From contig CAZTQA010000002.1 in assembly GCA_964615205.1 (NCBI GenBank), forward strand, positions 125,267 through 189,266: a stretch of DNA of 64,000 nt, written 5' to 3'. Positions 4,382-56,948 of this stretch are shown piece after piece. The notes under the pieces were generated by a model that saw nothing but the letters and a program-made list of their open reading frames with translations, was not told the origin of the DNA and did not search any database. A program made the position numbers and the translations under genes. The stretch comes from an uncultured Candidatus Saccharibacteria bacterium. GTDB lineage: Bacteria; Patescibacteriota; Minisyncoccia; Minisyncoccales; JAGMDC01. Each line of letters opens with the position of its first letter. The stretch's first letter is position 1.

Positions 4382-4885
4382 GTGTTATATTTATATAATA
4401 TGGAAGAAAATAATCAAAACCCAGAATTAAATCAAACACGCTGTCAGAGAATTAAAGATTCTTCCTGGTTCATTCTGGCTGTGGCTTTTCTGGTAGTCAT
4501 AATCGGCATTGTGGTTTTAAGCTGGCAGTATCATAAAATTGCAGAAAAAGAAATTCCTTCTCTCAAAGAAACTATAGAAGAGAATAACGCCCAGAATGTT
4601 TTAGAAAAATTTATGCAATATCGTATTGAAGGAAATGAAAATCAGGCCTTGATTTATCTTACAGAAAATGCGGTTGCTCAAAGGGAACAAGGAAAATTCC
4701 AGCTTATTAACCAATTCGAAAGCTTTGAAATCATTAACTCGCAGAAAACAGACGAAAATAGTTATCGTTTTGCTGTTAGAATTAAAGGAGAAAAGAACAA
4801 CTACGAAGTTATTGAAAGTATTAAGATTATAAAGTTTTTGGAGTTAAATAAATATTACATAGATTCTGTGGAATTAGCAGGATAA
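4382..4885 (+). CDS. hypothetical membrane-anchored protein
   Basis: 167 aa with a single TM (FILAVAFLVVIIGIVVLSW). The start may be the internal ATG at 4400 (MEENNQ). Confidence 0.45.
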   Translation: MLYLYNMEENNQNPELNQTRCQRIKDSSWFILAVAFLVVIIGIVVLSWQYHKIAEKEIPSLKETIEENNAQNVLEKFMQYRIEGNENQALIYLTENAVAQREQGKFQLINQFESFEIINSQKTDENSYRFAVRIKGEKNNYEVIESIKIIKFLELNKYYIDSVELAG

Positions 4886-4886
4886 A

Positions 4887-6251
4887 ATGTTTCTTTCTCT
4901 TTTTAAAAAACTTTTTTGCTTTTTTGTTTTATCAGCCCTTATAACCGGGTTTTTTCTTTTTGTCATAAGTAATCCCAAAGAAATCAATAAGATTTTTTCT
5001 TCTGCTTCCTTGGCAGAAATTTCTAAAGAAGACAATCAAAAACCTGAAGAAAAAATTAAATACTTAATAGACTTTTATAGTTTAACTGAGCAGGAATTTA
5101 TTTCTCAAGAAAAAGATTTTATAGAAATAAATCTTTCAGAAGAAAAAGCCCAAGTTTATAAACAAGGAATAATGGAAAAAGAGATTGACATTCTGACTCA
5201 AGGAAATCCTCAAGAATGGGGAGGAACACCGGTCGGTCTCTATGAGGTTTTGTCTGGAAATAAAATAGGTTTTTCCAACATCAGTCAGGTGTATATGCCT
5301 TGGGCTCTCCATTTTTATGGAAAATACTATATCCACGGAGAACCCTATTATTCCAATGGAACTAAAATGGAATCAGATTACTCTGGAGGTTGCATTAGAT
5401 TTACTGATAAAGATGCTGAATATATTTTTAAAGCCACTGAAATCGGAATACCTATGTTAATTATTGACAAACAATCCCTTTCTTCAGAAATTGTGGGAGG
5501 CCCGGCCTCCCACAATTTAGAGGTTTCGGCAGAATCTTTTTTGGTAGCTGATTTAGACAATTATCAAGTTTTGGCAGAAAAAAACTCAAGCCAGGTTCTT
5601 CCTATTGCTTCTTTAAGCAAGCTTATGACAGCTATAATAGCCATAGAACATAATAATTTAAAGAATTCAATCTGGACCACAGAAGATATGCTTACTGCCC
5701 TTGGCTCTACTCCTGGCTTAGAAGCAAACAAAAAATATAACTTAGTAGAACTGCTTCACCCTCTTTTAACCCAATCTTCAAACGATGCAGCTGAAATATT
5801 AACCAGGTTCTTGGGTAGAGAGAAAACTATTAATTTAATGAATGAAAAAACAAAAACTATTGGTATGAAAAACACTTTTTTTGAAGACCCCAGCGGTCTA
5901 AGTCCTAATAATGTTTCCACAACTGAAGATTTATTCTATTTAACTCGATATATTTTTAATGTTCGTCCTCCTATCTTAGAAATAACTAAGGGCGAAATAA
6001 TTGAAGATTTTGGCACAGTTCATTTTGAAGATCTACATAACAAAAATATTTTTCCAGAAAGCCAAGATTTTTTGGGCGGTAAAACCGGATTTATTGTTGA
6101 GTCCAAGAATACAGGCATATTCATATTCAAAATGCCTTTATCAGACAACACTTCTCGTAATATAGTTATTATTCTTCTGAAATCAAAGTCTCCTAAAACC
6201 GACGTAGAAAAAATAATTACCTGGTGGTTTGAAAATATTTTTTTACAATGA
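4887..6251 (+). CDS. fusion of L,D-transpeptidase (YkuD) domain and serine D-Ala-D-Ala carboxypeptidase (PBP5/S11-like) domain
   Basis: YIHGEPYY...SGGCIRF matches the YkuD H...GC[IV]R catalytic signature. Downstream SLSKLMT (SxxK) and SSND (SxN-like) motifs fit a DD-carboxypeptidase. N-terminal TM present. Confidence 0.7.
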   Translation: MFLSLFKKLFCFFVLSALITGFFLFVISNPKEINKIFSSASLAEISKEDNQKPEEKIKYLIDFYSLTEQEFISQEKDFIEINLSEEKAQVYKQGIMEKEIDILTQGNPQEWGGTPVGLYEVLSGNKIGFSNISQVYMPWALHFYGKYYIHGEPYYSNGTKMESDYSGGCIRFTDKDAEYIFKATEIGIPMLIIDKQSLSSEIVGGPASHNLEVSAESFLVADLDNYQVLAEKNSSQVLPIASLSKLMTAIIAIEHNNLKNSIWTTEDMLTALGSTPGLEANKKYNLVELLHPLLTQSSNDAAEILTRFLGREKTINLMNEKTKTIGMKNTFFEDPSGLSPNNVSTTEDLFYLTRYIFNVRPPILEITKGEIIEDFGTVHFEDLHNKNIFPESQDFLGGKTGFIVESKNTGIFIFKMPLSDNTSRNIVIILLKSKSPKTDVEKIITWWFENIFLQ

Positions 6252-7511: not shown

Positions 7512-8090
7512 ATGAAAATGAAAACAGGAATATCAATTGCATTAATAATCGGCTTATGTCTCGTATGCGTAGCAGCTGCCTATGTGTTTGAGTCCCGTTC
7601 CATAGTTACCTTCTCGGGTACGGTGAGAAGTGCGGATATTGTCGTAAGCGATCCCCTGAATCTGGACATAGGAGACTTAGGTCCTGGTGAAGAATTCGTA
7701 ATTATTGAGCCGGGATCAATAGATCTCTACACAAACATCAACGGTCTTTGCGTACGAGTATACGCTGAAAATTACAACTACGAAGTACTGCAAAGCTTGC
7801 AGATATCCGCTGAAGTGTTAAATCTGGACGATGGCTTAATCATAGCGACCTTCAACGACAAGGACGTAAGCTCATTGTACTATGAGTTGAATTTAAAGAA
7901 CCTGCCGAACAACGTTTGCTTTCACTTCACTAGGATCGAAGGACAAGCAGCCTATTCCAAGGGAGATAAAACCCTTGGCAATCTTCAGATTAAGCTTTAC
8001 CCTTATCCGAATGAGTGGGATACTAGTGAAGGCAAAGGAATGGGATTAACAACCTCGAACGAGACAACCAGCGACGGGGCAAAGGGTTAA
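7512..8090 (+). CDS. secreted hypothetical protein (weak TasA/camelysin-type signal-region resemblance)
   Basis: 192 aa with a signal/TM, then AAAYVFESRS...TFSGTV. Preceded by a strong GGGAGGTGAT Shine-Dalgarno, unlike most genes here. Confidence 0.5.
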   Translation: MKMKTGISIALIIGLCLVCVAAAYVFESRSIVTFSGTVRSADIVVSDPLNLDIGDLGPGEEFVIIEPGSIDLYTNINGLCVRVYAENYNYEVLQSLQISAEVLNLDDGLIIATFNDKDVSSLYYELNLKNLPNNVCFHFTRIEGQAAYSKGDKTLGNLQIKLYPYPNEWDTSEGKGMGLTTSNETTSDGAKG

Positions 8091-8205
8091 ACCCTGAACG
8101 TCCGCCACCGAGTGTGAAAAATTTTTTCCTTTCTTTTTTCTTTTTTTAAGTTTATAACTCGTTCACAGAACATTTGTAAATTTAAACAAAGAAAAACCTA
8201 AAAAT

Positions 8206-8233
8206 AAGTAATCTCACGATCGTGAGATTACTT
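8206..8233. repeat. 28-bp perfect palindrome, family B copy 1 (intergenic)
   Basis: aagtaatctcacga/tcgtgagattactt. Matches 26/28 to the copy at 39327..39354 inside tsaD, and the two differences are compensatory. Confidence 0.8.
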
Positions 8234-8242
8234 GTGGGATTT

Positions 8243-8266
8243 ACCCCGTACAATCCTATACGGGGT
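8243..8266 (+). terminator. hairpin followed by T-tract
   Basis: accccgta-caatccta-tacggggt (8-bp stem), followed by ttacttctttttt. Confidence 0.45.
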
Positions 8267-8301
8267 TTACTTCTTTTTTAATTTCTGCTACTATTAAAGC
8301 A

Positions 8302-8673
8302 GTGTTAAGAGAACTCATTCTTAAAATCATTGCCGGAATTGCCGGAATTTGGTTAGCGTCTGAATTTGTTTCCGGCGTGATGATAATAGATTCCTGGCAG
8401 ATATTTGTCTGGGCAGGTTTAATTTTAGGCCTGATTAATTATTTCATTAAACCTATCCTTAATTTCATCGCTCTGCCCTTGCGAATATTGACTTTAGGAT
8501 TATTTAGTTTAGTTATTAATATGGGAATTATCTGGGTAGTAGATTATTTTTTTGACAGCATCACTATTCAGGAATTAGCTTCCTTATTCTGGACTACCCT
8601 TATTGTCTGGTTGATGAATATAATTCTGCCTAAATTTTTTCCTAAAAAAAGAAAACTATTGGAAAATGCCTGA
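8302..8673 (+). CDS. DUF360 / 4-TMS holin-superfamily-IV-like membrane protein
   Basis: 123 aa with four TM segments. IKPILNFIALPLRILTLGLFSLVIN is typical of this family. GTG start. Confidence 0.7.
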   Translation: MLRELILKIIAGIAGIWLASEFVSGVMIIDSWQIFVWAGLILGLINYFIKPILNFIALPLRILTLGLFSLVINMGIIWVVDYFFDSITIQELASLFWTTLIVWLMNIILPKFFPKKRKLLENA

Positions 8674-8887
8674 TTATATAACATTTATACAAATAGCTAT
8701 AGCTACTTCTATTATTGTTTTAATTCTTGTTCAGCAGAGAGGAACTGCTTTAGGTTCTGCTTTCGGTGGTGAAGGAGGAGGAGGATTTTATGCTACCCGA
8801 AGAGGAATCCAAAAGAAAATATTCTGGGCCACTATTGTTTTAGGAGTGGCTTTTATTGGGCTATCTTTAATAACCCTTGTTATCTAA
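8666..8887 (+). CDS. secG: preprotein translocase subunit SecG
   Basis: 73 aa with two TMs flanking a Gly-rich loop (GSAFGGEGGGGFYATRRG). Confidence 0.85.
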   Translation: MPDYITFIQIAIATSIIVLILVQQRGTALGSAFGGEGGGGFYATRRGIQKKIFWATIVLGVAFIGLSLITLVI

Positions 8888-8889
8888 CA

Positions 8890-10881
8890 ATGTCTCTAAA
8901 AGAAAAATTGCCTTCCTTTAATCAATGGAAGCGATTATTTAAAATTTTAAATAAGAAGGAAAAGATATATTTTTCTCTTTTCTTTATTTTATTTTTATTC
9001 TCCTTTCTTTTTCTTTCTTTCAATTTTTATTTCAATAATACTCAAATTGTTCCCAAACAAGGCGGAATCTACACCGAGGGCTTGATAGGCCAGCCCAGAT
9101 TTATAAATCCTGTTTATGCCACTTCTAACGATGTTGACAGAGATCTCACAGAAATACTTTTTTCTGGATTAATGAAGTACGACAGCAATGGAAATTTAGT
9201 CCTGGATTTGGCTAAAGGATATAATCCAGAAAACGAAGGAAGAGGTTATACTTTTTATCTAAAAGAGAATGTCTTTTGGTCGGACAATGAAAAACTTACT
9301 GCTGATGACATAATTTTTACCATTGAAACCATACAGAATCCGGATTATAAAAGTGAACTGCGTACAAATTGGTTAGGAGTAGATACTGAAAAAATCTCTG
9401 AATATGCAGTCAAATTCATATTAGACAAACCCTACAGCGGTTTTTTAGAAAGACTGACTTTAAAGATTCTGCCCGCTCATATCTGGAAGGAAGTTTCTGC
9501 GGATAATTTTTCCAAAAGCTATTACAATCTCCAGCCTGTAACTTGCGGACCCTACAAAATAGATAAGGTAGACCAAGATAAAAAAACAGGTTTAATTAAT
9601 TCTTTAACTTTAGAAAGGGACGAAAACTATTTCAACCAAAAACCATATATTTCAAAAATAATTTTCTACTTTTTTGAAACCGAAGAAGATCTCGTTGAGG
9701 CTACCCAGCAAGGCAGAATTAAGGGCCTTTCCCTAAATAATTTTCAAAGTCAAGAAATACCTTCTTTCTTAAAAGAATACGCCCTGACTCTTCCAAGATA
9801 TTTTGCTATCTTTTTTAATCCCGAAGAGTCAGATATTCTTGAAAAGAAGGAAATCAGGCAAGCCTTGAATTACGGAACCAATAAACAAGAATTGATTGAT
9901 AAAGTATTGGCTGACAAAGCTACTATTGTTGATTCACCCATTCTGCCTGAGATATTTAATTTCCAGGCGCCGGAAACCGTATATGAATATGATGCGGAAA
10001 AAGCCAAGAAAATTTTGGAAGATCAAGGATTTAAAGAAACCGAAAACGGTTATAGAGAAAAAGAGATCAAAAAAGAATTGGCATTTTCTTTTAAAAGTGA
10101 GTTAAGCTACGGTTCTGAAAACAAAGAGGTGGAAGAGCTTCAGAGATGCTTAGTCAACAGCGAGATCGTGGGAGAAGATATTTATCCAGAAAAAGAAATC
10201 ACTGGCTATTTTGGAAACAAAACTAAAGAAGCTGTAATTAGATTTCAGGAAAAATATAGAGAGGAAATACTTGATCCCGGAGGTTACACAAAAGGAACTG
10301 GAACTGTAGGACAATCCACCAGAAAAAAACTTAATCAAATCTGTTTTGACAATACTCAGGAAACACTTCCATTGAAATTTTCTTTAGTAACTGTCGATGA
10401 CCCAGTTTTAAAAGAAATAGCTGATTTAATTAAAGAACAGTGGCAAAAAATAGGAGTGGAGCTTGAAATCAATGTTTTTTCTGTTTCTGATCTCCAGTAT
10501 GACTGCATTAAACCCAGAAATTACGAGTCCCTTCTTTTTGGAGAAGTATTGGGAATAATTCCTGACCCTTATCCTTTCTGGCATTCTTTGCAAAAAGTAG
10601 ATCCCGGACTTAATTTAGCTATCTACGAAAACAAAAAAACAGACAAGCTTTTAGAAGGTGCCCGACAGCTTCAGGACATGGAAACTATTCAAGAAAAACT
10701 GGAAGAATTCCAAAACCTATTAATTGCTGACGCTCCCTGCGTTTTTCTGTACAGTCCAAACTATACTCATCTTGTTTCCAAGGAAATCCGGGGAATCAAT
10801 CCGGGATTGATAGCTGATCCCTCAAAAAGATTCAGCCAAATAGAAGATTGGTATATCAAAACCAAAAGAACTTTTAAGTAA
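8890..10881 (+). CDS. family-5 (peptide/nickel type) solute-binding protein with an inserted peptidoglycan-binding domain
   Basis: 663 aa with an N-terminal TM and SBP_bac_5-like sequence throughout. The internal EVEELQRCL...GYFGNKTKEAVIRFQEKY...GTVGQSTRKKLNQ resembles PG_binding_1. Confidence 0.65.
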   Translation: MSLKEKLPSFNQWKRLFKILNKKEKIYFSLFFILFLFSFLFLSFNFYFNNTQIVPKQGGIYTEGLIGQPRFINPVYATSNDVDRDLTEILFSGLMKYDSNGNLVLDLAKGYNPENEGRGYTFYLKENVFWSDNEKLTADDIIFTIETIQNPDYKSELRTNWLGVDTEKISEYAVKFILDKPYSGFLERLTLKILPAHIWKEVSADNFSKSYYNLQPVTCGPYKIDKVDQDKKTGLINSLTLERDENYFNQKPYISKIIFYFFETEEDLVEATQQGRIKGLSLNNFQSQEIPSFLKEYALTLPRYFAIFFNPEESDILEKKEIRQALNYGTNKQELIDKVLADKATIVDSPILPEIFNFQAPETVYEYDAEKAKKILEDQGFKETENGYREKEIKKELAFSFKSELSYGSENKEVEELQRCLVNSEIVGEDIYPEKEITGYFGNKTKEAVIRFQEKYREEILDPGGYTKGTGTVGQSTRKKLNQICFDNTQETLPLKFSLVTVDDPVLKEIADLIKEQWQKIGVELEINVFSVSDLQYDCIKPRNYESLLFGEVLGIIPDPYPFWHSLQKVDPGLNLAIYENKKTDKLLEGARQLQDMETIQEKLEEFQNLLIADAPCVFLYSPNYTHLVSKEIRGINPGLIADPSKRFSQIEDWYIKTKRTFK

Positions 10882-30862: not shown

Positions 30863-30936
30863 GGGCGTATAGCTCAGTTGGTTAGAGCGTCGCGTTGACA
30901 TCGCGGAGGTCTCCCGTTCGATCCGGGATACGCCCA
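30863..30936 (+). tRNA. tRNA-Val (anticodon GAC)
   Basis: Acceptor GGGCGTA/TACGCCC, anticodon arm TCGCG-TTGACAT-CGCGG, T arm TCCCG-TTCGATC-CGGGA. Confidence 0.85.
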
Positions 30937-30950
30937 CTAGAAAATTAAAA

Positions 30951-31613
30951 ATGAAAAGAGAAAAAGTGTCTGGCTACGCCAGATCTGGCGAAGCCAGAAA
31001 AGTTATTTTTGAAAATAATGATTTGCTGGTTATAGACAAACCGGCTGGAGTTAATTCTGATGATTTTGAAATGAGAATCCATCGCTTGGACAAAGACACT
31101 TCCGGAATTCTGTTAATAGCCAAAAACCAATCTGCTCTTGATTTTTTTCAAAAACAGTTTAAAAATAGAACGGTAGTCAAAAAATATTCAGCTTTGGTTT
31201 ACAAAACCCCAAAAAATGATTTCGGAAAGATAGAAACTCTTATAGGGCGTTCCTTGAAAGACGGCAAAAAACAAAAAATCTATCTTTTCAGAGAACCAGA
31301 TGCTCAAAGAAAAGGATTAAGGCAAGCGGTTACTGATTATAGAGTAATTAAAAGATATAAAGAATTTACTTTAATTGAAGCTGAACCCAAAACCGGCCGC
31401 AAGCATCAAATCAGATGCCACTTAGCTTATTTAGGTCACCCTGTGACGGGAGATAAAGTTTACGGATTCAAAAACCAGCCTCTACCTAAAGGATTGAAAA
31501 GACAGTTTCTTCACGCCGGCTATATTAAAATAACTATGATAGACGGCACAAAAAAAGAATTTAAATCTGAATTGCCACAAGATTTAAAACAAATTCTATG
31601 TCAAATAAATTAG
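30951..31613 (+). CDS. RluA-family pseudouridine synthase (short form, no S4 domain)
   Basis: LLVIDKPAG and the HRLDKDTSG catalytic motif, plus GRKHQIRCHLA. Confidence 0.75.
   Translation: MKREKVSGYARSGEARKVIFENNDLLVIDKPAGVNSDDFEMRIHRLDKDTSGILLIAKNQSALDFFQKQFKNRTVVKKYSALVYKTPKNDFGKIETLIGRSLKDGKKQKIYLFREPDAQRKGLRQAVTDYRVIKRYKEFTLIEAEPKTGRKHQIRCHLAYLGHPVTGDKVYGFKNQPLPKGLKRQFLHAGYIKITMIDGTKKEFKSELPQDLKQILCQIN
30969..30998. repeat. 30-bp near-perfect palindrome, family D copy 1 (inside the RluA-like gene)
   Basis: tctggctacgccaga/tctggcgaagccaga (one arm mismatch), translated as SGYARSGEAR. Matches the reverse complement of the copy at 53669..53698 at 27/30. Confidence 0.75.
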
Positions 31614-32504: not shown

Positions 32505-32852
32505 TTATACGCGGTTGAAGTCATCTTCTAAACGTTCAATATCATCCTCTTCTAAATATTCGCCTAATTCAACTTCAAAGACCTCTAAATTAGAATGGCC
32601 TGTGTTTTCTAAGCGGTGTATTTCTTCTTTTTTTATAATAATACTATCTCCCTGTTTTAAATTCATTTCTTTTTCTCCCTTAATAGCTTTCGCCTGCCCC
32701 TTAGTAATAACCCAGTATTCTTTTCTGTGTTTGTGTCTTTGCAGACTCAATCTTTTTTGTGGCAAAATAATTATTTTTTTAATTTTAAAACCCTGGTCCT
32801 GACCAATTATTTCAAAATATCCCCAAGGTTTTTGTGTTTTCTCTCTTGTCAT
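32505..32852 (-). CDS. cupin protein resembling the C-terminal cupin domain of type II phosphomannose isomerase
   Basis: 115 aa: KPWGYFE...LSLQRHKHRKEYWVITKG...GDSIIIKKEEIHRLEN. Confidence 0.65.
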   Translation of the reverse strand: MTREKTQKPWGYFEIIGQDQGFKIKKIIILPQKRLSLQRHKHRKEYWVITKGQAKAIKGEKEMNLKQGDSIIIKKEEIHRLENTGHSNLEVFEVELGEYLEEDDIERLEDDFNRV

Positions 32853-35410
32853 AATTTTATCTTTAAAGTAACTATTTCAAAAGGATTAATAGTAAATTCC
32901 ATAATATTTTTATTGAGCTTTATTTTCTTGCTTATTTTTTTATCCTCTTTCTCAAGCAGATTAACTGTCTGTACATCTTTGATGTCTTTAAAAGAATTTA
33001 TCCTTGCCCTTGTCTTCTTGCCGGAAATTTCATAAACCCTGACAATAAAACCATTATTTTTCTCTGCCTTTTTAAAAGCACTTAGCAAAACATTATCTGG
33101 TTCAACTTTCAAAAATGAATTTTCTGCCCTACATTTTCTGTCCGGCTCCACCTGAAGAGCTGCTAACTTATTATTGACTTGCCAGGCCTGTTTCCAAACC
33201 TTGGCTTTCTTCCAATCATTTTGATGAGGATAAATGGAATAGTTAAAAACATAATTCCTAAATTCCCGAGCTTCAGACACAGGAATAATAGGACCGGCTT
33301 TGCCATCAGAAGAAAGCACCTCCACCGACCTTAATAAGGTTAGATACATACAATTATCTCTGACTTCATTTTCCGGATTACCTGTATTTATAAGGGTTAA
33401 CCCCTTTCTTTGGTCGCTGTAATCAAACCATTGCCAGCAAGGAAAAATACCCGGACATTCTTCATAATAAGAGGCGCACTTTAAATGATATTGGTCAGTT
33501 TTTCTCTCTGTTGTTCCAAACTGACTTTCAGAAACATATTTATCTTGATTGACTTTAGTGTCAAATCCTACCCTTATTCTTATTTTGGGATGATTGTTTT
33601 CTACTTCGGTTACAAAATCGATTCTGGGTAATTCTTTGTAAATAATCATTTTCTTTCTAAATTTAATAAAGGGATACCTCCAGATTTGGGGCTTCAAACT
33701 ATCTACTAATCTATAAGGCCATCTCAAAGAAAAGTAATCAGTTTCAATGTTAATAATTTTTCTTAAATTAGAATCTTGTGTATTGTAATTTCTGATTTTA
33801 AAAGTTCCGTATTTTAAACCTTTTCCACTTTCAGTTTTTAGAGGAAAATTAAAACTTTCTTTATGATTATAGAGGTCTCCCGATTCATCATCTAAAACTA
33901 TCTCATTGCCTTTACATAAAAGCTTGTTTCTCTGAAAAACTTCAATTAATCCATCTTCTTTAGAAAACTTAACATTGAAAAATTTGTTTTTAATAAGATT
34001 GTTGTTCTGTTTAAGAAAAAAGCTTTCATCTATTTGGGGTTTAGCACTCATAATTCTGTAAACCTTATAGCCCAGTGCTGGAACATCGGCTACAAAACCT
34101 ATCTTAATTCTCTTCAAAGAATTATCTGAATATCTCTGGGATTCTATCTCTTCAACTTCCTTCTCTATATTCTGGTTTTTAACCCCAGTTATTTTGAAAA
34201 CCTTCCCTTGTTTAAAATCTAACTCGCACTCCACCCAATCAGACACATCCCAGGATAATGAATTGAAAACAGCTATCTCCTCAAAATTGGGGGAGGTCGA
34301 ACCTCCCCCAATTTTGGAATTATTGATAAGTATTGAGTTTAAAACATAATTAAAAGGATCTGGAATTCTGCTCTTTAAAAAACTAATGTTTTCTTTAGCT
34401 TCAGTGTACCCGGAATCCACACCTGTGCCAGGAACTACATCATGAAAAGCTAAAAACAAAACTTTCTTCCATAAGTTTCTCAAATTGATAGGGCATTTAT
34501 TTCCTAAAAGAGAATTGATAGAACTGAATTTTTCAAAACCAATTAAACTATTTTCGCATTCACGCAAATCTTTTTTGAGCCAAATCCTGGTAGAGGCTGT
34601 GCCTGGAAAGACGCGGGAATATCTGCCTGAATACATTTCTCCTTTTCTGACGCGAAGTTTTTTTTGCTCTTTCTCCAAACTCCTGAAAAATTCAGAGACA
34701 AGAGCTATCTTCATTTTGGATTTATGTTTTCGGTTCCATTTTTTAACCGCTGACATTGTTTCTTCTTGAGGCAGAGTTACTCCGCTGCCAGAAGGCATTA
34801 AAATATTTTTAGTCGCCGCCCAGCCTTTTAATTTAGTATAACTTTCTTCTAATTTGGTTAGATCTAAACCGGCCCTATATCCTAAGGGCATAAAATGAGA
34901 AATAATCTTTGTTCCATCCAGTCCTTGCCATATAAATTCAGAAAATTTTCTTTGAAAAGCTCCCCTTCTGAAAGCCACGTATTTATAACCGCATTTACGA
35001 TATACTTGGGGAAGCTGATTATTAAGCCCGAAACTGTCTGCCTGCCACATTACTTCAACATCTTTGTTGAAGTTTTCTTCCACGAAATCTTTACCCACAG
35101 CTATTTCCCTCACCAAGGTTTCACCTTGGGGAAACATAGTATCTGCCATTAAATATTCTCCATCAGCAATCTCAATTTTGTCTTCTTGAATATATTTTTT
35201 AATTTTTCTAAAAAGCTCCGGGTATTTATTTTTGATTTCTTCTAATAAATATGTCTGTTCAATCAAAAAGCGATAATCTTTTTCTTTTTCCATCAAGATT
35301 ACAACTTTCTTTAAAATTAAATCTATATTGATATGAAAATAATCTTCTCGGGTAAAAACCCAAACCGCATCATAATGAGTATGTGGAACTAAATAAATTT
35401 CATTTTTCAT
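32849..35410 (-). CDS. GH38 alpha-mannosidase family protein
   Basis: LVPHTHYDAVW N-terminal GH38 signature and family-typical length. Start set at ATG 35410 (MKNEIYLVPH), giving an 11-nt overlap with the upstream gene. Confidence 0.8.
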   Translation of the reverse strand: MKNEIYLVPHTHYDAVWVFTREDYFHINIDLILKKVVILMEKEKDYRFLIEQTYLLEEIKNKYPELFRKIKKYIQEDKIEIADGEYLMADTMFPQGETLVREIAVGKDFVEENFNKDVEVMWQADSFGLNNQLPQVYRKCGYKYVAFRRGAFQRKFSEFIWQGLDGTKIISHFMPLGYRAGLDLTKLEESYTKLKGWAATKNILMPSGSGVTLPQEETMSAVKKWNRKHKSKMKIALVSEFFRSLEKEQKKLRVRKGEMYSGRYSRVFPGTASTRIWLKKDLRECENSLIGFEKFSSINSLLGNKCPINLRNLWKKVLFLAFHDVVPGTGVDSGYTEAKENISFLKSRIPDPFNYVLNSILINNSKIGGGSTSPNFEEIAVFNSLSWDVSDWVECELDFKQGKVFKITGVKNQNIEKEVEEIESQRYSDNSLKRIKIGFVADVPALGYKVYRIMSAKPQIDESFFLKQNNNLIKNKFFNVKFSKEDGLIEVFQRNKLLCKGNEIVLDDESGDLYNHKESFNFPLKTESGKGLKYGTFKIRNYNTQDSNLRKIINIETDYFSLRWPYRLVDSLKPQIWRYPFIKFRKKMIIYKELPRIDFVTEVENNHPKIRIRVGFDTKVNQDKYVSESQFGTTERKTDQYHLKCASYYEECPGIFPCWQWFDYSDQRKGLTLINTGNPENEVRDNCMYLTLLRSVEVLSSDGKAGPIIPVSEAREFRNYVFNYSIYPHQNDWKKAKVWKQAWQVNNKLAALQVEPDRKCRAENSFLKVEPDNVLLSAFKKAEKNNGFIVRVYEISGKKTRARINSFKDIKDVQTVNLLEKEDKKISKKIKLNKNIMEFTINPFEIVTLKIKL

Positions 35411-36125
35411 GTAAGATAATTCTTTTAATTGATTTCGCCCATTCTTGAGGACCATTTTTAACAAGAATAGGAATATCTACATTTTTTAACATTGGCTTGT
35501 CATTCTCTGAATCGCCCAAACCAATAGTGATTATTTTTCCAAACTCCTTCTTATACATCTGGGTTAATAATTTAACTGCTTTTCCTTTATCTGCTTTTTT
35601 GCCAAAAACTTGGATAAACCTGCCTCCAGAAACAACATTGAATTCCTTTTTTAACTCTTTTAAAGCTTTTTTATCTGATTCAACCACTGTCTCTCCAAAT
35701 TCCCTTTTTTTTGCCAACTTAGCCCTCCCTAATTTCAGTCCTGTAATTTCAGCCACTTGTTTAGCGGTCATATCTTTGTATCCTTTTATTTTATATTTTC
35801 TCTGCAAAGTTTTAATTTCTTTTTTAATTTTATCAGACTGAATTCCTAAAACAACTTTTAAGGTGTTAATTTGTTTAAAATAATTTTTAGGAACATAAAC
35901 AGCCGAGCCATTTTCTACTATAATGGGGTGATTTAATCTCATTTTTCTGCGGAAAACACTTTGTTCTGCCTTTGTTTTGGCAGAGCAAAAAATTACAGGG
36001 ATTTTCTTCTTTTTTAAAATATTTAAAACCGGCTCTGCCGGTTTAAAAGAATAAGCTTTATTAAGCAGGGTTCCGTCTAAATCAGTAAAAATTATATATT
36101 GTGTATTCTTTGCTTTTTTAAGCAT
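35400..36125 (-). CDS. HAD-IIB phosphatase of the mannosyl-3-phosphoglycerate phosphatase (MpgP/YedP) family
   Basis: IIFTDLDGTLL...PVIFCSAKTKAE...IVENGSAV parallels E. coli YedP as remembered. A GDSENDKPML motif lies near the C-terminus. Confidence 0.7.
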   Translation of the reverse strand: MLKKAKNTQYIIFTDLDGTLLNKAYSFKPAEPVLNILKKKKIPVIFCSAKTKAEQSVFRRKMRLNHPIIVENGSAVYVPKNYFKQINTLKVVLGIQSDKIKKEIKTLQRKYKIKGYKDMTAKQVAEITGLKLGRAKLAKKREFGETVVESDKKALKELKKEFNVVSGGRFIQVFGKKADKGKAVKLLTQMYKKEFGKIITIGLGDSENDKPMLKNVDIPILVKNGPQEWAKSIKRIILHEK

Positions 36126-36457: not shown

Positions 36458-38593
36458 ATGGAAATGATGGCAACAATGGATTTATCCACACCAATTGAAA
36501 AAATCTTTGGCATTGGCCCGGTTTTTCAAAAAAAACTAAAAAGAATAGGGGTTAAAACTGTCCGCGACCTATTTTATCATTTTCCTCACCGTTATGAGGA
36601 CTTTTCCAATATTATTTCTGTTTCCAAAGTAAAATTAAATGAAAATGTTTGTATTTTGGGGAAAATCCTGGAGATAAAAAATAGCCGAACCTGGAAAAAA
36701 AGAATGATTTTAACCCAAGCCATTGTTCAGGATAAAAACGGGGCCATAAAAGTGGTCTGGTTCAACCAGCCCTATCTAACCAGAACTTTAAAAATAAATG
36801 ATAATGTCTGTTTGGCTGGAAAAACTACCTTGGGAGAAGATGGACTATATCTTTCTAATCCTGCCTATGAGAAAATTACCGACTATAAACCACAAACCAT
36901 AAACTTAACCCACACCGGCCGATTGGTGCCCGTATATCCGGAAACAGAGGGACTTTCTTCGCGCTGGCTAAGATATATTTTAAAGCCCCTCTTATTTAAA
37001 TTTCAGAATCAGATTCCGGAAATCATTCCTCCTCAAATACTCCAAGAAAATAAGCTTTTGCCAATCAAAAAATCCCTCTGGCAGGTTCACTTCCCAGATT
37101 CTTTAGATTCGGCTCAAAAAGCCAAACAAAGATTTTCTTTTGAGGAATTGTTTTTAATTGAATTGGCTGTTTTAAAATCCAGGATGCGCCTCAATGAACA
37201 GAAATCAATATCCATTCCTATGAACATTGATTTGATCAAACGTTTTGTCCAGGGTTTGGGTTTTAAATTAACGGACGACCAAAGAAAATCTAGCTGGCAA
37301 ATTATGAAAGATTTAGAAAAAACCAGGCCTATGAACCGGCTTCTGGAAGGAGATGTTGGTTCTGGCAAAACAATTGTGGCTTTGATAGCTGCTTTAGAAA
37401 CCATTAAAGCTGGCTATCAGGCGGCTTTTATGGCTCCTACAGAAATTTTAGCTAAGCAGCATTTCAAAGAAGTAGCTTCTCGTTTTAAAAACTTTAATAT
37501 TAATATTGGTTTGTTAACCGGGAAAGAAGACAAGTTTATTTCTAAAAAATTAAAACAGGAACCGATTGAAATTTCTAGAAACAAGCTTTTAGAGAAGAGT
37601 CTGAAAAAAGAAATAGATATTTTGATTGGTACTCATGCTTTAATTCAGGATAGGGTTAAATTTGGCAATTTGGCTTTAGTAATTCTAGACGAACAACATC
37701 GTTTCGGCGTAGAACAGCGCGCCCGCCTTGCAGGGACAGGAGGGGGACTGTCCCCCTCCTGTCCCCATCTATTGTCTATGACCGCCACCCCTATCCCCCG
37801 CAGCCTGGCTTTGACTATATACGGCGACCTTGACCTGTCTTTGATAGAACAGCTTCCCAAGGGAAGGAAAAAAATAATTACTAAAATAGTTCCTCTGACT
37901 GAAAGAAATAAAACCTATAGTTTTATTAAAAAAGAAATAAAAAAGGGAAGACAAGTATTCATTATCTATCCCAGAATTGAAGCTAATAATGATGAAACGC
38001 TCACGGAGACCAAAGCTGTAAAGCAGGAATACGAAAGATTGTCAAAAAAAGTTTTTCCAGATTTAAAATTAGCTATGCTTCATGGAAAAATGACCCCAAA
38101 GGAGAAAGAGAAGATAATGCTTGACCTAAAGAATAGAAAAACAGATATTCTGGTTTCCACCTCTGTGATAGAAGTAGGCATTGACGTACCTAATGCTACA
38201 GTTATGCTTATAGAGGGAGCAGAAAGATTTGGTTTAGCTCAATTACATCAGTTTAGGGGAAGAGTGGGGCGTTCAAAGTACCAATCCTATTGTTTTCTTT
38301 TGACAGAATCACCGGCAAGAAAAACCCACCAAAGATTAAAAGCTCTGATTTCAGCCCAAAATGGGTTTGAATTGGCAGAAAAAGATCTGCAGATAAGGGG
38401 GCCAGGAGATTTTAGCGGAACAAGACAGTGGGGTATTCCAGATTTAATAATGGATTCTTTGAAAGATTTTTCTTTAGTGGAAAAAACTAGAGAAGCAGCT
38501 AAAAGAATATTAGAAAAAGACAAACAATTAAAAAATTATCCTTGGCTCAAAGAAAGATTAAAAGAATTTAATCAAAGGATTCATTTAGAGTAA
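36458..38593 (+). CDS. recG: ATP-dependent DNA helicase RecG
   Basis: Wedge/OB N-terminus, GDVGSGKT, DEQHRFGV, MTATPIPR, and RGRVGR. Confidence 0.9.
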   Translation: MEMMATMDLSTPIEKIFGIGPVFQKKLKRIGVKTVRDLFYHFPHRYEDFSNIISVSKVKLNENVCILGKILEIKNSRTWKKRMILTQAIVQDKNGAIKVVWFNQPYLTRTLKINDNVCLAGKTTLGEDGLYLSNPAYEKITDYKPQTINLTHTGRLVPVYPETEGLSSRWLRYILKPLLFKFQNQIPEIIPPQILQENKLLPIKKSLWQVHFPDSLDSAQKAKQRFSFEELFLIELAVLKSRMRLNEQKSISIPMNIDLIKRFVQGLGFKLTDDQRKSSWQIMKDLEKTRPMNRLLEGDVGSGKTIVALIAALETIKAGYQAAFMAPTEILAKQHFKEVASRFKNFNINIGLLTGKEDKFISKKLKQEPIEISRNKLLEKSLKKEIDILIGTHALIQDRVKFGNLALVILDEQHRFGVEQRARLAGTGGGLSPSCPHLLSMTATPIPRSLALTIYGDLDLSLIEQLPKGRKKIITKIVPLTERNKTYSFIKKEIKKGRQVFIIYPRIEANNDETLTETKAVKQEYERLSKKVFPDLKLAMLHGKMTPKEKEKIMLDLKNRKTDILVSTSVIEVGIDVPNATVMLIEGAERFGLAQLHQFRGRVGRSKYQSYCFLLTESPARKTHQRLKALISAQNGFELAEKDLQIRGPGDFSGTRQWGIPDLIMDSLKDFSLVEKTREAAKRILEKDKQLKNYPWLKERLKEFNQRIHLE
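37743..37775. repeat. 33-bp perfect palindrome, family A copy 1 (in frame inside recG)
   Basis: gggacaggagggggac-t-gtccccctcctgtccc, translated as GTGGGLSPSCP between helicase motifs II and III. Matches the copy at 55007..55039 at 30/33. Confidence 0.8.
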
Positions 38594-38691: not shown

Positions 38692-39795
38692 ATGAGAAAA
38701 AAATCAATGGAAAACATAATAATTTTAGCTATTGAAACCTCTTGTGATGACACCTGCATAGCAATATTAAAAATCAAAAATCAAAAATCAAAAATATTGA
38801 GTAATGCGGTTTCGTCGCAAATAGAAATCCATAAAAGGTATGGAGGAGTTTATCCTATGATGGCAAAAAGAGAGCATCAAAAAAACCTGCCTTTAGTTCT
38901 CAAAAAATCCCTGGAAGAGGCTAAAATTAATCGCCCTGATTATATTGCTGTAACCATAGGCCCAGGATTAGAACCTTGTTTATGGACTGGAGTAAATTTT
39001 GCTAAACATTTAGCTCAAAAATGGAATCTCGAAATTATACCAGTAAATCATATTGAATCTCACATATTAGTTAATTTTCTACAAACTACCAACCATAAGC
39101 TACAAGCTGTTCTCCCGGCTGTTTGTTTGGTAGTAAGTGGTGGACATACCCAGTTAATTTTAATGAAAGAAATTGGGAAGTATAAAATTTTGGGAGAGAC
39201 CAGGGATGATGCAGCTGGGGAATGTTTTGATAAAACTGCTCGCATCCTTGGCTTAGATTATCCCGGAGGACCCGCCGTAGCTCAACAAGCTGATCAATTC
39301 AGACAATCTAGAAAAAATAAAGAAACAAGTAAACTCACGATCGTGAGTTTACTTCCGAGACCAATGATTTACTCTAAGGATTATGATTTTAGTTTTTCCG
39401 GATTAAAAACCGCAGTCTTATATAAAGTTAAATGTCCCGTCTTCGCCAAGGCTTCAGTGGACAAGGAAAAACAAAAAACAAAAAAATTTGTTCAAATGAT
39501 GGCTAAAGAAATCCAGCAGGCTATTATTGATATTTTAATTAAAAAAACTTTGAAAGCAGCCAAAGATTACAATGCTAAAACAATTATCTTGGGAGGAGGA
39601 GTTTCTGCTAATCAGGAACTACGTAAGCAATTTAAGAAAAAGATTCAAAAAGATTTCTCTCAATGCCAGTTTTTAGTTCCTGAACCAAAGTTCAGCACAG
39701 ATAATGCTGTTATGACTGCCATAACTGCCTATTTTAATTTAAGTAAAACCCAAAGCTGGAAAAAAATTAAAGTTAATGCTAATCTTAAAGTATGA
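38692..39795 (+). CDS. tsaD: tRNA N6-adenosine threonylcarbamoyltransferase TsaD
   Basis: AIETSCDDT, NHIESH, DFSFSGLKTA, and GGGVSAN. The start may be the ATG at 38707. Confidence 0.9.
   Translation: MRKKSMENIIILAIETSCDDTCIAILKIKNQKSKILSNAVSSQIEIHKRYGGVYPMMAKREHQKNLPLVLKKSLEEAKINRPDYIAVTIGPGLEPCLWTGVNFAKHLAQKWNLEIIPVNHIESHILVNFLQTTNHKLQAVLPAVCLVVSGGHTQLILMKEIGKYKILGETRDDAAGECFDKTARILGLDYPGGPAVAQQADQFRQSRKNKETSKLTIVSLLPRPMIYSKDYDFSFSGLKTAVLYKVKCPVFAKASVDKEKQKTKKFVQMMAKEIQQAIIDILIKKTLKAAKDYNAKTIILGGGVSANQELRKQFKKKIQKDFSQCQFLVPEPKFSTDNAVMTAITAYFNLSKTQSWKKIKVNANLKV
39327..39354. repeat. 28-bp perfect palindrome, family B copy 2 (inside tsaD)
   Basis: aagtaaactcacga/tcgtgagtttactt, covering codons TSKLTIVSLL. 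These lie in a segment longer than the E. coli TsaD equivalent as I recall it. Confidence 0.8.
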
Positions 39796-41227: not shown

Positions 41228-41297
41228 TCATTTATTATTTTAACCTACTTCTAAAAAAAATCAATCCCGTTTGAACGGGATTGATTTTAGAATAAAT

Positions 41298-53157: not shown

Positions 53158-53997
53158 TTAAATAAACAGATTTAAATACCAATTTGTTATTTGCTGGCCC
53201 CAGAATAAAGCGATAAAAGTGCCTGTTACCAGAAAAGGACCAAAAGGAATTTCTGATTTCAGGGTTTTCTTTTTAATTAAAATCAGTTCTATTCCTATTA
53301 TAGCACCAATTAGAAAAGCAAAAAACATAGCTACAAAAATATTGGGCCAGCCAAGCAGCAAGCCCATTAAAAAAGCAAGCTTTATGTCTCCTACTCCCAT
53401 GCCCTTGCCATGAGTAATAAGAACAATTGCCAGGAAAAAACCAGCAGCAATAAAAGCTGCTGAGATAAAGCTCCAAATCCCAATCCGCCAGCTGGCGGAC
53501 AATGACCAATCAAATCCCAATGACCAATTTTCAAACAATTTATAAATAAAGGCTATCCCTATAGCTGGGAAGATAACCTTGTCTGGGATGATGTAGTGCT
53601 TCAAGTCATAGACAAAGATAATTATTAAAATGCTGGCAATAGCAAAAAGAAACATTAAATCCAAAATCTCTGGCTCTGCCAGATCTGGCGTAGCTAGACA
53701 AAATCCTAACGACCAATAATAAAAAATTGGTAGAAATAGCAAACCCGTTGCTATTTCTACCAATGGGTATTGAATAGAGATTTTTTTGTGGCAGTAGCGG
53801 CATTTAGCTTTTAAAATAAAAAAGCTTAGTAAAGGGATTAAATCATACCAAGCCAGTTTGTGTCTGCATTTCGGGCAATAAGACCTGCCCTTCAAAGCGC
53901 TCTCCCCCTTCTCCAAGCGATAAATAACGCAATTTAAAAAACTACCCACTGTCAGGCCAAAAATAAAAACAAAAACATAGAAAACAACATTTACCAT
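53158..53997 (-). CDS. pilD: prepilin peptidase (A24 family) PilD
   Basis: N-terminal CxxC...CxxC (CPKCRH...CRYCHK), a multi-TM body, and KGMGVGDIKL and PFGPFL aspartyl-protease motifs. Confidence 0.9.
   Translation of the reverse strand: MVNVVFYVFVFIFGLTVGSFLNCVIYRLEKGESALKGRSYCPKCRHKLAWYDLIPLLSFFILKAKCRYCHKKISIQYPLVEIATGLLFLPIFYYWSLGFCLATPDLAEPEILDLMFLFAIASILIIIFVYDLKHYIIPDKVIFPAIGIAFIYKLFENWSLGFDWSLSASWRIGIWSFISAAFIAAGFFLAIVLITHGKGMGVGDIKLAFLMGLLLGWPNIFVAMFFAFLIGAIIGIELILIKKKTLKSEIPFGPFLVTGTFIALFWGQQITNWYLNLFI
53669..53698. repeat. 30-bp palindrome, family D copy 2 (inside pilD)
   Basis: tctggctctgccaga/tctggcgtagctaga. In pilD it encodes LATPDLAEPE, a different reading frame of the element from copy 1. 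Confidence 0.7.
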
Positions 53998-54597: not shown

Positions 54598-54918
54598 TTA
54601 ACAAATTCCAACTTCTGCTTCTAATCGAGCAACTCTTTTTTCAAGCCAAATAATTTTTTCTCTATCAATTTGTCTTTCTTTCTGAAATTTTTGAATTAAA
54701 TTTTTTAATTCTTTTAATTGCTTGGAATGCTCTGTAGCTTTATCTTCTAAAAATATTACTCTCCTTTCTAAACTGGATAGTTTATTTCTTATATCTTTTA
54801 TGTCTTCTTTTATTCTAGAGACATCCTGTCTCATGCCAGCCCTATCTTCTTGGGCATCCAAAAACCCCTTTTGAATCATTTGGGCTAATTTTTCAATTGT
54901 AATTTCTTTCTTTTTCAT
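54598..54918 (-). CDS. coiled-coil hypothetical protein
   Basis: 106 aa, charged, with heptad-like repeats (LSSLERRVIFLEDK...LEKRVARLEAEV). Confidence 0.45.
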   Translation of the reverse strand: MKKKEITIEKLAQMIQKGFLDAQEDRAGMRQDVSRIKEDIKDIRNKLSSLERRVIFLEDKATEHSKQLKELKNLIQKFQKERQIDREKIIWLEKRVARLEAEVGIC

Positions 54919-55006: not shown

Positions 55007-55039
55007 GGGACAGGAGGGAGACAGTCCCTCTCCTGTCCC
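55007..55039. repeat. 33-bp palindrome, family A copy 2 (intergenic, 11 nt downstream of the OST gene stop)
   Basis: gggacaggagggagacagtccctctcctgtccc. The outer 10-bp arms are perfect and the inner part is degenerate. Confidence 0.75.
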
Positions 55040-55049
55040 TGTTAAACTT

Positions 55050-56948
55050 TTAAATTGAGACTTTGTATATTTTTATTACAGAACTAAAATAGTTATCGGA
55101 GAAGGTATTAAATTTTAATTCAAAGCCAGGTACTTCTTCGTTATAAATGAGAAGTCTTGTGAATAAACTATTTTTTAATTCATCTGGAATGAAAAATTTT
55201 GTTTCCTCAGATTTCTCGTCATATTCAGCCGCATATTTGTATTGATTTCCAGCTTCAGTTTCTCTATCCCAAGTAGCGCAATATGTCCAGATATAACTTC
55301 TGGGTATTAAGTCAGCTGAAAGCAATAAATAAACTTCTGAAGCCTCTCCTTTATAATTCTTAATAATATTCAAGGCCTTTTGGGGATCATCAGTAAATAA
55401 AATGTTAGAAAAATCTTGTATTCTCGAGGTAATACAAATATTATCTTTAATAATACCCTTCCTGTCAAAACATTCTTCTCTAGAAGCGGAATCCAAATCA
55501 GTTTCTTTCAGCCCTCCGAAGCTTCCATTATCAAGTATTACTTTTCTGTTAGTTGTTGTTAATATCCAATAACCATAATCTGACCAAGAAAGGACTACTG
55601 CATCCTCATTTGTTTTTTGTTTTAGAAAATTTAAAGCGCTACCCCACTGCGAATTAATGCCAGTCCTATGATCAAACGCCTCCAAATAAGCAATATTAAA
55701 AGTAAAGTAAAAACAGAAAAAAATAAGAACAACTGATAAAATAAACATTGATTTATCTAATCTCTTCTCTAATAGTAAAGCAAGACTTTTCTTCCAGATA
55801 ACTAAAACACAAAACCCAGCGCATAAAGCTAACGGAAGAGCAAAAAACTCTCCATACCTAATAGATTTTGAAAAAGGAAAAAGAGTAGTAATAAAAAAAA
55901 CTGTTAATAAAGGAAACAAATACTGCCATTTGCTTTTATTAATATTTTTAACAAAACAAAGAATTATTAAAATAAACCCTAAAATCCCAATGAAAAAACA
56001 AGAACTGCCTAAATTACTTATTGCATTAATAAAACCTTTCGGGGCTTGAAGCTCATCAATAAAAGGTCTGAGGCTTGGGAAGCCCTCTGGAGTAATTTGT
56101 TCTGCAGATGTTTTAATCTGAAAAAAACTAAAAGGAGAAATAAGTGTTTCTTTAACAACATCAATGCCTAAGAAAACAAGCGTAAACAGAAAAAAACTCA
56201 AGAAAAAAATCAGGTAAACAAAAAAATAGTTCTTGAAAGATAAAAAAGATTTTTTAGAAAAATAATGAATACAAAAATGGAAAAATAAAAGGGAAAGAAC
56301 AATCCAAAAAGCCAGCCAGCTACCTACCCAGGCCCAAGACCATAAAAAGAGCAAGAAGCCGGCCAAAAAAGAAAATGTTAGTGCTTTCCGTTTAAAAACC
56401 CTTTCTAAATCAACTTTAGAAAGAGCAGCAATAAAAAAACATATAATAAGGGACAAAAATAAAAGATTAATACCATCAGTATCTAAATCCCCTGACATAC
56501 TTCTTAATAGAAAAACCGGCGACAGAGTAAAAAAAAGAGCAGACAGAACGCCAACCAAATTACTGAAAAGAATTCTACCAATGAAAAAAATAGGAAAAAC
56601 ACTTAAAGCTCCTATAAATAGAGAAAACCAAAAACAAAAAGCTAAAAGAGACGGTTGCGGCAATAAAAGATTGAAAAGTTTATAAGAATAAGTTATTAAA
56701 TAAACAAAAAAATCAGGCTTATACGGAACTCCGTCAGGATACATTCTCAAAATATCTGTTTCAATATTACCTTGGTTTAAAAGAACATCTGACTGATGGT
56801 AATAAAAAAACCCATCATGCCTTAGCAGATAAGGCTCGTAAAGGGTATATGAACGCAAACTTAAAGAAAGAAAGAAAACAAAAAATAAAAAAATTATTGT
56901 GAATAATTTTTTATTTTGGGAAAAGATTTTAACAATAGATATTCTCAT
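55050..56948 (-). CDS. STT3/PglB/AglB-type oligosaccharyltransferase homolog (GT-C fold)
   Basis: 632 aa with about 13 TMs plus a soluble C-terminal domain. SWSDYGYWI matches the WWDYG motif. SGDLDTDG is a DxD-like acidic loop, PFIDELQ is TIXE/SVSE-like, and SIRYGEFFALP carries the conserved Arg segment. Confidence 0.75.
   Translation of the reverse strand: MRISIVKIFSQNKKLFTIIFLFFVFFLSLSLRSYTLYEPYLLRHDGFFYYHQSDVLLNQGNIETDILRMYPDGVPYKPDFFVYLITYSYKLFNLLLPQPSLLAFCFWFSLFIGALSVFPIFFIGRILFSNLVGVLSALFFTLSPVFLLRSMSGDLDTDGINLLFLSLIICFFIAALSKVDLERVFKRKALTFSFLAGFLLFLWSWAWVGSWLAFWIVLSLLFFHFCIHYFSKKSFLSFKNYFFVYLIFFLSFFLFTLVFLGIDVVKETLISPFSFFQIKTSAEQITPEGFPSLRPFIDELQAPKGFINAISNLGSSCFFIGILGFILIILCFVKNINKSKWQYLFPLLTVFFITTLFPFSKSIRYGEFFALPLALCAGFCVLVIWKKSLALLLEKRLDKSMFILSVVLIFFCFYFTFNIAYLEAFDHRTGINSQWGSALNFLKQKTNEDAVVLSWSDYGYWILTTTNRKVILDNGSFGGLKETDLDSASREECFDRKGIIKDNICITSRIQDFSNILFTDDPQKALNIIKNYKGEASEVYLLLSADLIPRSYIWTYCATWDRETEAGNQYKYAAEYDEKSEETKFFIPDELKNSLFTRLLIYNEEVPGFELKFNTFSDNYFSSVIKIYKVSI

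Follow-up and report, generated by a model that had tools for sequence, protein, structure and literature searches.

The 64-kb stretch of patescibacterial DNA analysed here (the window) carries two copies of a 33-bp G+C-rich palindrome, named family A, one translated in frame within the recG gene and the other located between genes, 3' of an oligosaccharyltransferase gene. Family A is a dispersed repeat that is associated with a transposase gene in related genomes, and its recG copy is lineage-specific and falls within a loop of the protein. We consider it likely that family A is a low-copy hairpin repeat similar to the repetitive extragenic palindromic (REP) elements, made and moved on single-stranded DNA by a Y1 transposase related to the REP-associated tyrosine transposases (RAYTs), and that the recG copy is an old, tolerated in-frame insertion. 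The recG locus is organised as follows.

36458 to 38593, plus strand: open reading frame (ORF) of the intact 711-aa recG, with all helicase motifs and homologues annotated as RecG.
37709 to 37780, plus strand: hypervariable linker from motif II (DEQHRFG) to motif III (TATPIPR), whose variable part consists almost entirely of the element.
37733 to 37765, no strand assigned: recG copy of the family A palindrome, GGGACAGGAGGGGGAC-T-GTCCCCCTCCTGTCCC, in phase 0 of recG.

The recG copy consists of two arms of 16 nt each that are 100% complementary and separated by one unpaired nucleotide. The original prediction had announced a perfect 33-bp palindrome at positions 37743 to 37775; the palindrome is real, but it lies 10 nt earlier. 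At 33 bp, G+C-rich and capable of forming a stem-loop, the element resembles REPs, which are about 20-40 bp long. Its G+C content is 73%, versus about 36% for the window, and it folds as RNA at -33.9 kcal/mol (z = -4.4). A match as good as that provided by the second family A copy was found in none of 100 dinucleotide-preserving shuffles. That the recG copy is no assembly artefact is shown by an independent ENA assembly (L006), which contains the identical sequence. Homologues of the recG ORF harbor the RecG_wedge, DEAD, Helicase_C and RecG_dom3_C domains and are labelled Minisyncoccales, Nealsonbacteria or Parcubacteria (Patescibacteria). As had been claimed, the palindrome is translated in frame, in phase 0, as the peptide GTGGGLSPSCP between DEQHRFG of motif II and MTATPIPR of motif III. 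In the AlphaFold model of the window RecG, the residues that it encodes (426-436) make up a loop that joins helix 418-424 to the motif III strand 437-442, with a predicted local distance difference test score (pLDDT) below 50 at residues 429-431.

The linker between motifs II and III ranges from 19 to 40 aa across 120 RecG orthologues and is unalignable except at its ends, VEQRAKL... and ...(I/V)PHLLSM. In the window recG, the final CCC of the palindrome encodes the otherwise conserved proline of PHLLSM. The orthologue that is 91% identical to the window RecG (L001) carries a diverged element, GGGACAGGACAGGGAC-T-GTCCCTGCCCTGTCC, and two orthologues at 76-77% identity (L002 and L003) carry decayed copies whose left arm is one 11-mer unit longer and whose remaining stem measures 5-7 bp. 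The 77%-identical orthologue L004 (protein P0004) has a minimal linker, ATG AAA AAT TCA ACT ATT CCT CAT, with no trace of the element. The RecG proteins P0003 and P0005 contain decayed, 11-mer-duplicated versions and their sisters P0004 and P0007 contain no element. With the linker masked, a neighbour-joining tree of RecG intermingles sequences that have the element and sequences that do not, P0003 being sister to the empty P0004 and P0005 to the empty P0007. The element is therefore a lineage-specific gain that was followed by decay or loss. Aligning close RecG orthologues had been proposed as a check on whether the 11 codons are an insertion, and the alignment supports a lineage-specific in-frame insert in a variable linker. 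An intact ORF with an in-frame insert that is missing from orthologues (here P0004 and P0007) is the pattern expected of Rickettsia palindromic elements (RPEs), and the recG copy displays it.

The second copy lies between two minus-strand genes.

55007 to 55039, no strand assigned: intergenic copy of the family A palindrome, GGGACAGGAGGGAGAC-A-GTCCCTCTCCTGTCCC, 10 nt 3' of the STT3 stop codon and 88 nt 5' of the next minus-strand ORF.
55050 to 56948, minus strand: ORF of an STT3-type oligosaccharyltransferase (OST) gene (Pfam STT3, 94.8 bits), with its stop codon at 55050-55052.
54598 to 54918, minus strand: ORF of a 106-aa coiled-coil-like protein downstream of the intergenic copy, with sub-threshold Pfam matches only.

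This copy was found as predicted, 30/33 identical to the recG copy, with three mismatches when compared on the plus strand and two on the minus strand. The OST identity of the neighbouring gene also held; its stop codon is 10 nt away, not the 11 nt initially given. The arms of the intergenic copy are complementary at 15 of 17 positions and the stem contains an internal mismatch. In the transcript of this (minus) strand, the hairpin has a fold energy of -27.3 kcal/mol and the sequence UUUGUCU comes after it. A scan for consensus terminators around this copy gave no call at the element, and an Rfam search with both family A copies returned only sub-threshold matches to microRNA-like hairpins. 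From its position 10 nt after the STT3 stop, as is seen for REPs and terminators, a role as terminator or mRNA 3'-end hairpin is plausible; the copy probably serves to terminate or stabilise the STT3 transcript, like classical REPs. It shares with intrinsic terminators a G+C-rich hairpin just past a stop codon followed by uridines on the transcribed strand, and differs from them in its short and interrupted, hence weak, U-tract, in its stem mismatch and in its absence from the consensus calls. Moreover, the same sequence inside recG plainly does not end the function of that gene.

We scanned public genome and metagenome collections with the pattern GGGACAGGNNNNNGACNGTCNNNNNCCTGTCC, which is blind to proteins, and obtained 32 loci (6 genome and 26 metagenome). 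About 24 of them are on low-GC contigs (33-44% G+C), whose named sources are a Nealsonbacteria metagenome-assembled genome (MAG), a Patescibacteria group MAG and an unclassified 'bacterium' MAG. These low-GC Patescibacteria loci bear out the earlier claim of a dispersed palindromic repeat family. The family A consensus is tGA-GGGACAGGGGAGGGAC-(A/T)-GTCCCTCCCCTGTCCC-TCa, built of tandem 11-mers GGGACAGGGGA, with 1-5 units per arm, around a GGGAC-N-GTCCC core that is free of stop codons in all six frames. No spacers that would indicate a CRISPR array were present at the family A loci, which contain tandem 11-mers only. At about 11 distinct loci the copy is a solo one, as the DNA retrieved there contains no transposase gene. 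Several other copies overlap ORFs but were rejected as intragenic, either because the ORFs look spurious and of low complexity or because the element sits at the ORF end (L009, L035, L015/L037); where a stop-to-stop ORF has the copy close to its N-terminus (L016, L023, L032, L034, L038), the copy was taken as upstream and intergenic. The recG gene is thus the sole solid intragenic site found for family A. The high-GC hits (L007, L008, L013, L020, L025-L029) were excluded, having no transposase homologue nearby and being in several cases probable chance matches in GC-rich DNA. Among these excluded loci, L007, L026 and L027 have a similar architecture with GGGACAG-type units: L007/L027 (Vicinamibacterales, 65% G+C) and L026 contain palindromes made of GGGGACAG-type 11-12-mers, with no homologue of the transposase described below in the DNA retrieved. 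The GGGGACAG unit fits the GGGGWSAS motif reported in repeats that flank acidobacterial TIRYT genes.

In nine loci, a gene for a 210-aa transposase abuts a family A palindrome, and in four of these (L010, L012, L024 and L034) the gene is flanked on both sides by copies ~700 bp apart, forming a compact unit of about 0.72 kb. The protein matches Pfam Y1_Tnp at 47 bits (cutoff 23), and its best NCBIfam family is the REP-associated tyrosine transposase, at 33.7 bits; the NCBIfam IS200 model gives 17.6 bits for a cutoff of 55. NHxH (the HUH motif), GHLFQDR and Tyr118 (Y118) are invariant in the family. About 100 homologous transposase clusters were found, all from Patescibacteria or Parcubacteria sources, and several members bear the JGI label 'REP element-mobilizing transposase RayT'. 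Sequence searches of the PDB, with the single protein or with a profile, gave no meaningful match, and only the fold search worked. The AlphaFold model of the transposase (pLDDT 95) comprises a Y1 domain of ~120 aa followed by a helical C-terminal extension of roughly 90 aa. Among PDB structures this model best matches 4ER8, a complex of the E. coli RAYT with a REP hairpin (E = 4e-7, TM 0.70), and the IS608 and ISDra2 TnpA structures rank after it (Foldseek ranks 2-24). In homologues at 60-67% identity (L039, L041), palindromes with the GGGAC-N-GTCCC core adjoin the gene and their outer arms are different. The loop nucleotide (A/T) was considered as a marker of orientation relative to the transposase gene and abandoned because it was not consistent: the sense strand has T in 6 of 8 loci. 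Many of the transposase homologues P0121-P0223 are on contigs of 0.7-3 kb, one cluster being found on 23 contigs, which suggests that assemblies break at a multi-copy or hairpin-rich unit.

The transposase gene and its palindromes might instead be an ordinary autonomous IS200-like insertion sequence (IS), the solo palindromes being excision footprints or end fragments. The compactness of the unit with hairpins at both ends, the presence of the gene in about a third of the retrieved loci, the small number of solo copies per genome and the many homologues on contigs of ~1 kb, typical of multi-copy repeats in short-read assemblies, would all agree with this. We nevertheless regard it as quite unlikely, as the best structural and NCBIfam matches are to RAYT and not to the TnpA of IS200 or IS608, and the same self-complementary sequence is found at both ends in place of distinct left-end and right-end hairpins. 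Furthermore, IS200/IS605 elements excise seamlessly and should leave no full hairpin, and short contigs such as L024 run past the unit into unique flanks.

Under the REP-like interpretation that we favor, a dedicated RAYT-like HUH/Y1 transposase acting on single-stranded DNA would create and move family A in Parcubacteria-type Patescibacteria, as part of a REPtron- or TIRtron-like unit. A solo copy would have entered the variable stretch of roughly 20 nt that links RecG motifs II and III, and the insert, since then inherited vertically, would now be translated as an 11-residue Gly/Pro/Ser-rich loop. Tolerance would follow from the absence of stop codons in every frame of the core and from the position in a disordered surface loop. 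Catalysis by the transposase and its movement of the hairpin are inferred, as is the terminator role of the intergenic copy.

Several observations weigh against this interpretation. The window and L001 recG genes are 83.9% identical at the nucleotide level and their elements are identical at 27 of 33 positions; the element has diverged at the gene's average rate and was therefore inherited vertically, so that the recG copy is old and does not represent recent transposition. Nor is it a clean insertion, since about 6 codons are replaced by 11 (net +5) relative to the nearest empty orthologue. No target site or target duplication is definable from the empty and filled recG sites; the search for one there was dropped, the linker being too diverged and the change being a replacement. 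Copies are few, with 2 in the 64-kb window and 1-3 strict-pattern copies per GTDB representative genome, the latter count being a lower bound as the strict pattern misses diverged copies. No GTAG/CTAC or CGTC tag adjoins the family A copies, whose flanks are tGA...TCa or locus-specific, and no REPIN doublet was observed, the copies being single self-complementary units with variable 11-mer extensions. The NCBIfam score of the 210-aa protein is below the RAYT equivalog cutoff of 80 bits. No Y1 transposase was detected in the window by tblastn or by searching the family hidden Markov model against all ORFs of at least 50 aa (none with E <0.1). Finally, to our knowledge, RAYTs have not been directly demonstrated to transpose REPs in vivo, even in E. 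coli.

Family A is found in a second RecG lineage. In a metagenome RecG, L021, the same linker holds the consensus element one base out of register with PHLLSM, so that the element is read in another frame (EGQGRDCPSPVP). The nearest relatives of L021 (74% identity) have the ordinary linkers LCANSSEKRIP and LCSNSAEKIIP, with no element, and L021 is far from the window clade on the RecG tree; the L021 element was therefore acquired independently. Accordingly, family A entered the same RecG linker at least twice, in different frames. The TGA...TCA flanks are kept out of frame in L021, and the flank of the window copy is GCA where TGA would be in frame.

Hairpins unrelated to family A were also observed in the motif II-III linker of other Parcubacteria recG genes. 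L043 (P0082) contains a 16-bp stem that includes AAAACCCGAGGTT, the whole linker folding at -31.6 kcal/mol, L044 (P0096) a 9-bp stem, and L045 (P0108) a nested G+C-rich GCCCGCC hairpin that overlaps the conserved ARL codons. In the element-free relative L004 (positions 7759-9784), two extra genes, one with a weak match to a Tsp45I-like restriction enzyme, separate the HAD hydrolase gene from recG; both are missing in the window and in L002/L003.

The symmetry of the recG stem has been maintained while its sequence changed. Four of the six differences between the window and L001 elements form two fully compensated pairs, at stem positions 10 and 11, and the window copy is still paired at 16 of 16 positions. 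In a simulation of six random substitutions, at least two compensated pairs arise with P of about 0.005. Five pairs were free to vary in a comparison of eight distinct variants; three of them change in both partners, and pairing is kept in 97.7% of cells, a level reached by only 2 of 500 shuffles. This covariation sample is small, and the search pattern had fixed the other 11 of the 16 pairs. Meanwhile the encoded peptide changes (GGG to GQG, SPS to SLP) and pairing is retained. The hairpin is thus either under selection as DNA or RNA or has had its arms homogenised mechanically, and the two are indistinguishable here.

These data raise the alternative that the hairpin in recG is itself selected as a DNA or RNA structure, for example for translational pausing, mRNA processing or cruciform feedback on the gene of RecG, a protein that binds branched DNA; its mobile origin would then be secondary. 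The compensated pairs, the covariation, the drift of the peptide under conserved pairing, the unrelated hairpins in the same linker elsewhere (L043, L045) and the independent gain by a distant RecG would fit such selection. We find it unlikely, though it is the alternative that we take most seriously. The sister proteins P0004 and P0007 and most of the roughly 190 orthologues inspected have no hairpin at all, so it is dispensable, and the L002 and L003 copies have been left to decay. The symmetry may also be mechanical, through arm-to-arm template switching or replacement by another family member, and the two compensated pairs are adjacent and may thus reflect a single event. The limits of the covariation sample given above apply here too.

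A related proposal, which we consider quite doubtful, is that the RecG motif II-III linker is a preferred or selected landing site for hairpins in Parcubacteria, beyond mere tolerance. The two or more entries of family A, the unrelated hairpins in the linker and the symmetry kept while the peptide drifted may be read in this way. The palindrome could have a cis function, for instance the adjustment of recG expression by a cruciform or an mRNA hairpin; branched and hairpin DNA are themselves substrates of RecG. Alternatively, hairpin elements could gain by modifying a helicase that otherwise processes their transposition intermediates. If true, this second mechanism would provide a mechanistic basis for the unexplained REP excess in DNA-repair genes noted in 2013.

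Family A is not the only palindrome of the window, which contains eight perfect palindromes with stems of at least 12 bp, five of them inside long ORFs. In total, 21 centre/loop combinations qualified in the window, versus none in 29 and one in the remaining one of 30 block shuffles. The palindromes outside family A, including imperfect copies, are listed below.

34282 to 34316: perfect palindrome with 16-bp arms, CAAAATTGGGGGAGGT-CGA-ACCTCCCCCAATTTTG, in the minus-strand GH38 mannosidase ORF 32849 to 35464, translated as KIGGGSTSPNFE.
39327 to 39354 and 8206 to 8233: two copies of the palindrome family AAGTAA(A/T)CTCACGATCGTGAG(T/A)TTACTT.
5488 to 5518: perfect palindrome with 15-bp arms, AAATTGTGGGAGGCC-C-GGCCTCCCACAATTT, in the plus-strand ORF 4878 to 6251, in the linker between the YkuD (residues 80-190) and peptidase S11 (residues 212-411) domains.
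30969 to 30998 and 53669 to 53698: third palindrome family, TCTGGCTnnGCCAGATCTGGCnnAGCCAGA, the first copy being near the start of ORF 30873 to 31613.
53726 to 53764: separate perfect palindrome with 17-bp arms, within the prepilin peptidase gene.
2315 to 2342 and 41257 to 41288: perfect intergenic palindromes, one being CCCCGGTGCTGCGATCGCAGCACCGGGG with centre GCGATCGC and the other AAAATCAATCCCGTT-TG-AACGGGATTGATTTT.

The GH38 mannosidase orthologues of L002-L004 are six residues shorter exactly at palindrome 34282-34316, whose family differs from family A. The copy at 39327-39354 is in a variable loop of TsaD (tsaD ORF 38692-39795), and its partner at 8206-8233 is intergenic or at the start of ORF 8212-8673. 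In the prepilin peptidase, the imperfect copy of TCTGGCTnnGCCAGATCTGGCnnAGCCAGA at 53669-53698 separates the two A24 domains. The palindrome AAAATCAATCCCGTT-TG-AACGGGATTGATTTT may be a terminator, because it lies between convergent ORFs. Since in-frame hairpins are present in the GH38, TsaD, YkuD/S11 and prepilin peptidase ORFs, in-frame hairpin inserts in tolerant loops are a general feature of the window lineage. The tsaD orthologues of L002 (12953-14098) and L003 (12305-13504) have, in the same loop, a different branched hairpin insert of ~60 nt, which encodes VKSFASSKRKSEILFNRVK, folds at about -23.5 kcal/mol and is missing in L004 and in the window.

Such palindromes could form de novo at susceptible sites, by local template switching, snap-back synthesis or 11-mer slippage, the likeness between copies then being convergent. 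Many palindromes of the window are unique sequences inside ORFs, the number of tandem 11-mers varies from 1 to 5 units among copies, and some copies extend the palindrome into locus-specific flanks (caaacaa...ttgtttg in L012, cgccaga...tctggcg in L035), all of which this explanation would accommodate. For family A we judge it very unlikely. The 33-mer recurs identically or with 1-3 nt differences at more than 15 non-homologous loci of different genomes and twice within the window, where the chance expectation is 0, it is tied to one transposase family over 60-100% protein identity, and a 73% G+C sequence is not derivable from local DNA of 36% G+C.

The REP-like interpretation has consequences beyond this locus. 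It would extend REP/RAYT-type hairpin elements to the Candidate Phyla Radiation (CPR); we found no description of REP/RAYT elements in CPR/Patescibacteria in the literature searched. CPR genomes are about 1 Mb and have a high coding density, so that nearly any insertion hits a gene and the surviving copies mark dispensable loops of core proteins. The odd Gly/Pro/Ser-rich peptide of RecG would be explained, and annotators and those who model protein families should be aware that a low-complexity insert of this kind in a CPR protein may be mobile DNA that is translated. The repeated hits in one RecG loop, together with the compensatory maintenance of a stem within a coding sequence, provide a testable case for the bias of intragenic REPs towards DNA-repair genes.

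Among known systems, the original prediction had likened family A to RPEs. This likeness stands as a functional analogy: in both, a repeated palindrome is inserted in frame in an essential-type gene and translated as an extra surface peptide, and is also found between genes. It does not extend to family membership. RPE-1-type elements are roughly 100-150 bp and we know of no transposase associated with RPEs, whereas family A is 33 bp long, has a linked Y1 transposase and resides in a Patescibacterium, a host of another phylum, and is therefore set apart from RPEs by description. The assignment of family A as REP/RAYT-like, and not RPE, is the better supported. With the IS200/IS605 elements (IS608, ISDra2), the family A system shares the HUH/Y1 fold and hairpin ends of the kind recognised as single-stranded DNA. 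Those elements have distinct left-end and right-end subterminal hairpins and tetra- or pentanucleotide targets, whereas the family A transposase gene is flanked by the same palindrome on both sides and the flanks of the family A loci show no shared target motif.

The resemblance to REP/RAYT systems is closer. Family A is a short G+C-rich palindrome dispersed at unrelated, mostly 3'-of-gene intergenic sites, its copies flank a Y1/HUH gene in related genomes, the closest solved structure is 4ER8, and an occasional in-frame intragenic copy is found in a DNA-repair gene, recG. The differences are its near-perfect 16-bp arms with a 1-nt loop and tandem 11-mers, the absence of a GTAG/CGTC tag, the occurrence as singletons and not REPIN doublets, and a very low copy number, as classical REPs number tens to hundreds of copies per genome. 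In addition, the transposase is a 210-aa protein with a C-terminal helical extension that does not reach the equivalog cutoff of the NCBIfam RAYT model, and family A resides in a CPR bacterium. The closest likeness of family A is to the TIRtron/TIRYT variants, in which self-complementary repeats flank the transposase gene (Di Nocera et al. 2013, PMC3733652). The same study reported that REPs are also found in frame within genes and, puzzlingly, are over-represented in DNA-repair genes (uvrABCD, recBCD, polA, dnaE2), and it described different REPs at about the same recB site in two Xanthomonas species. The recG case is a further example of the intragenic REPs in DNA-repair genes documented there.

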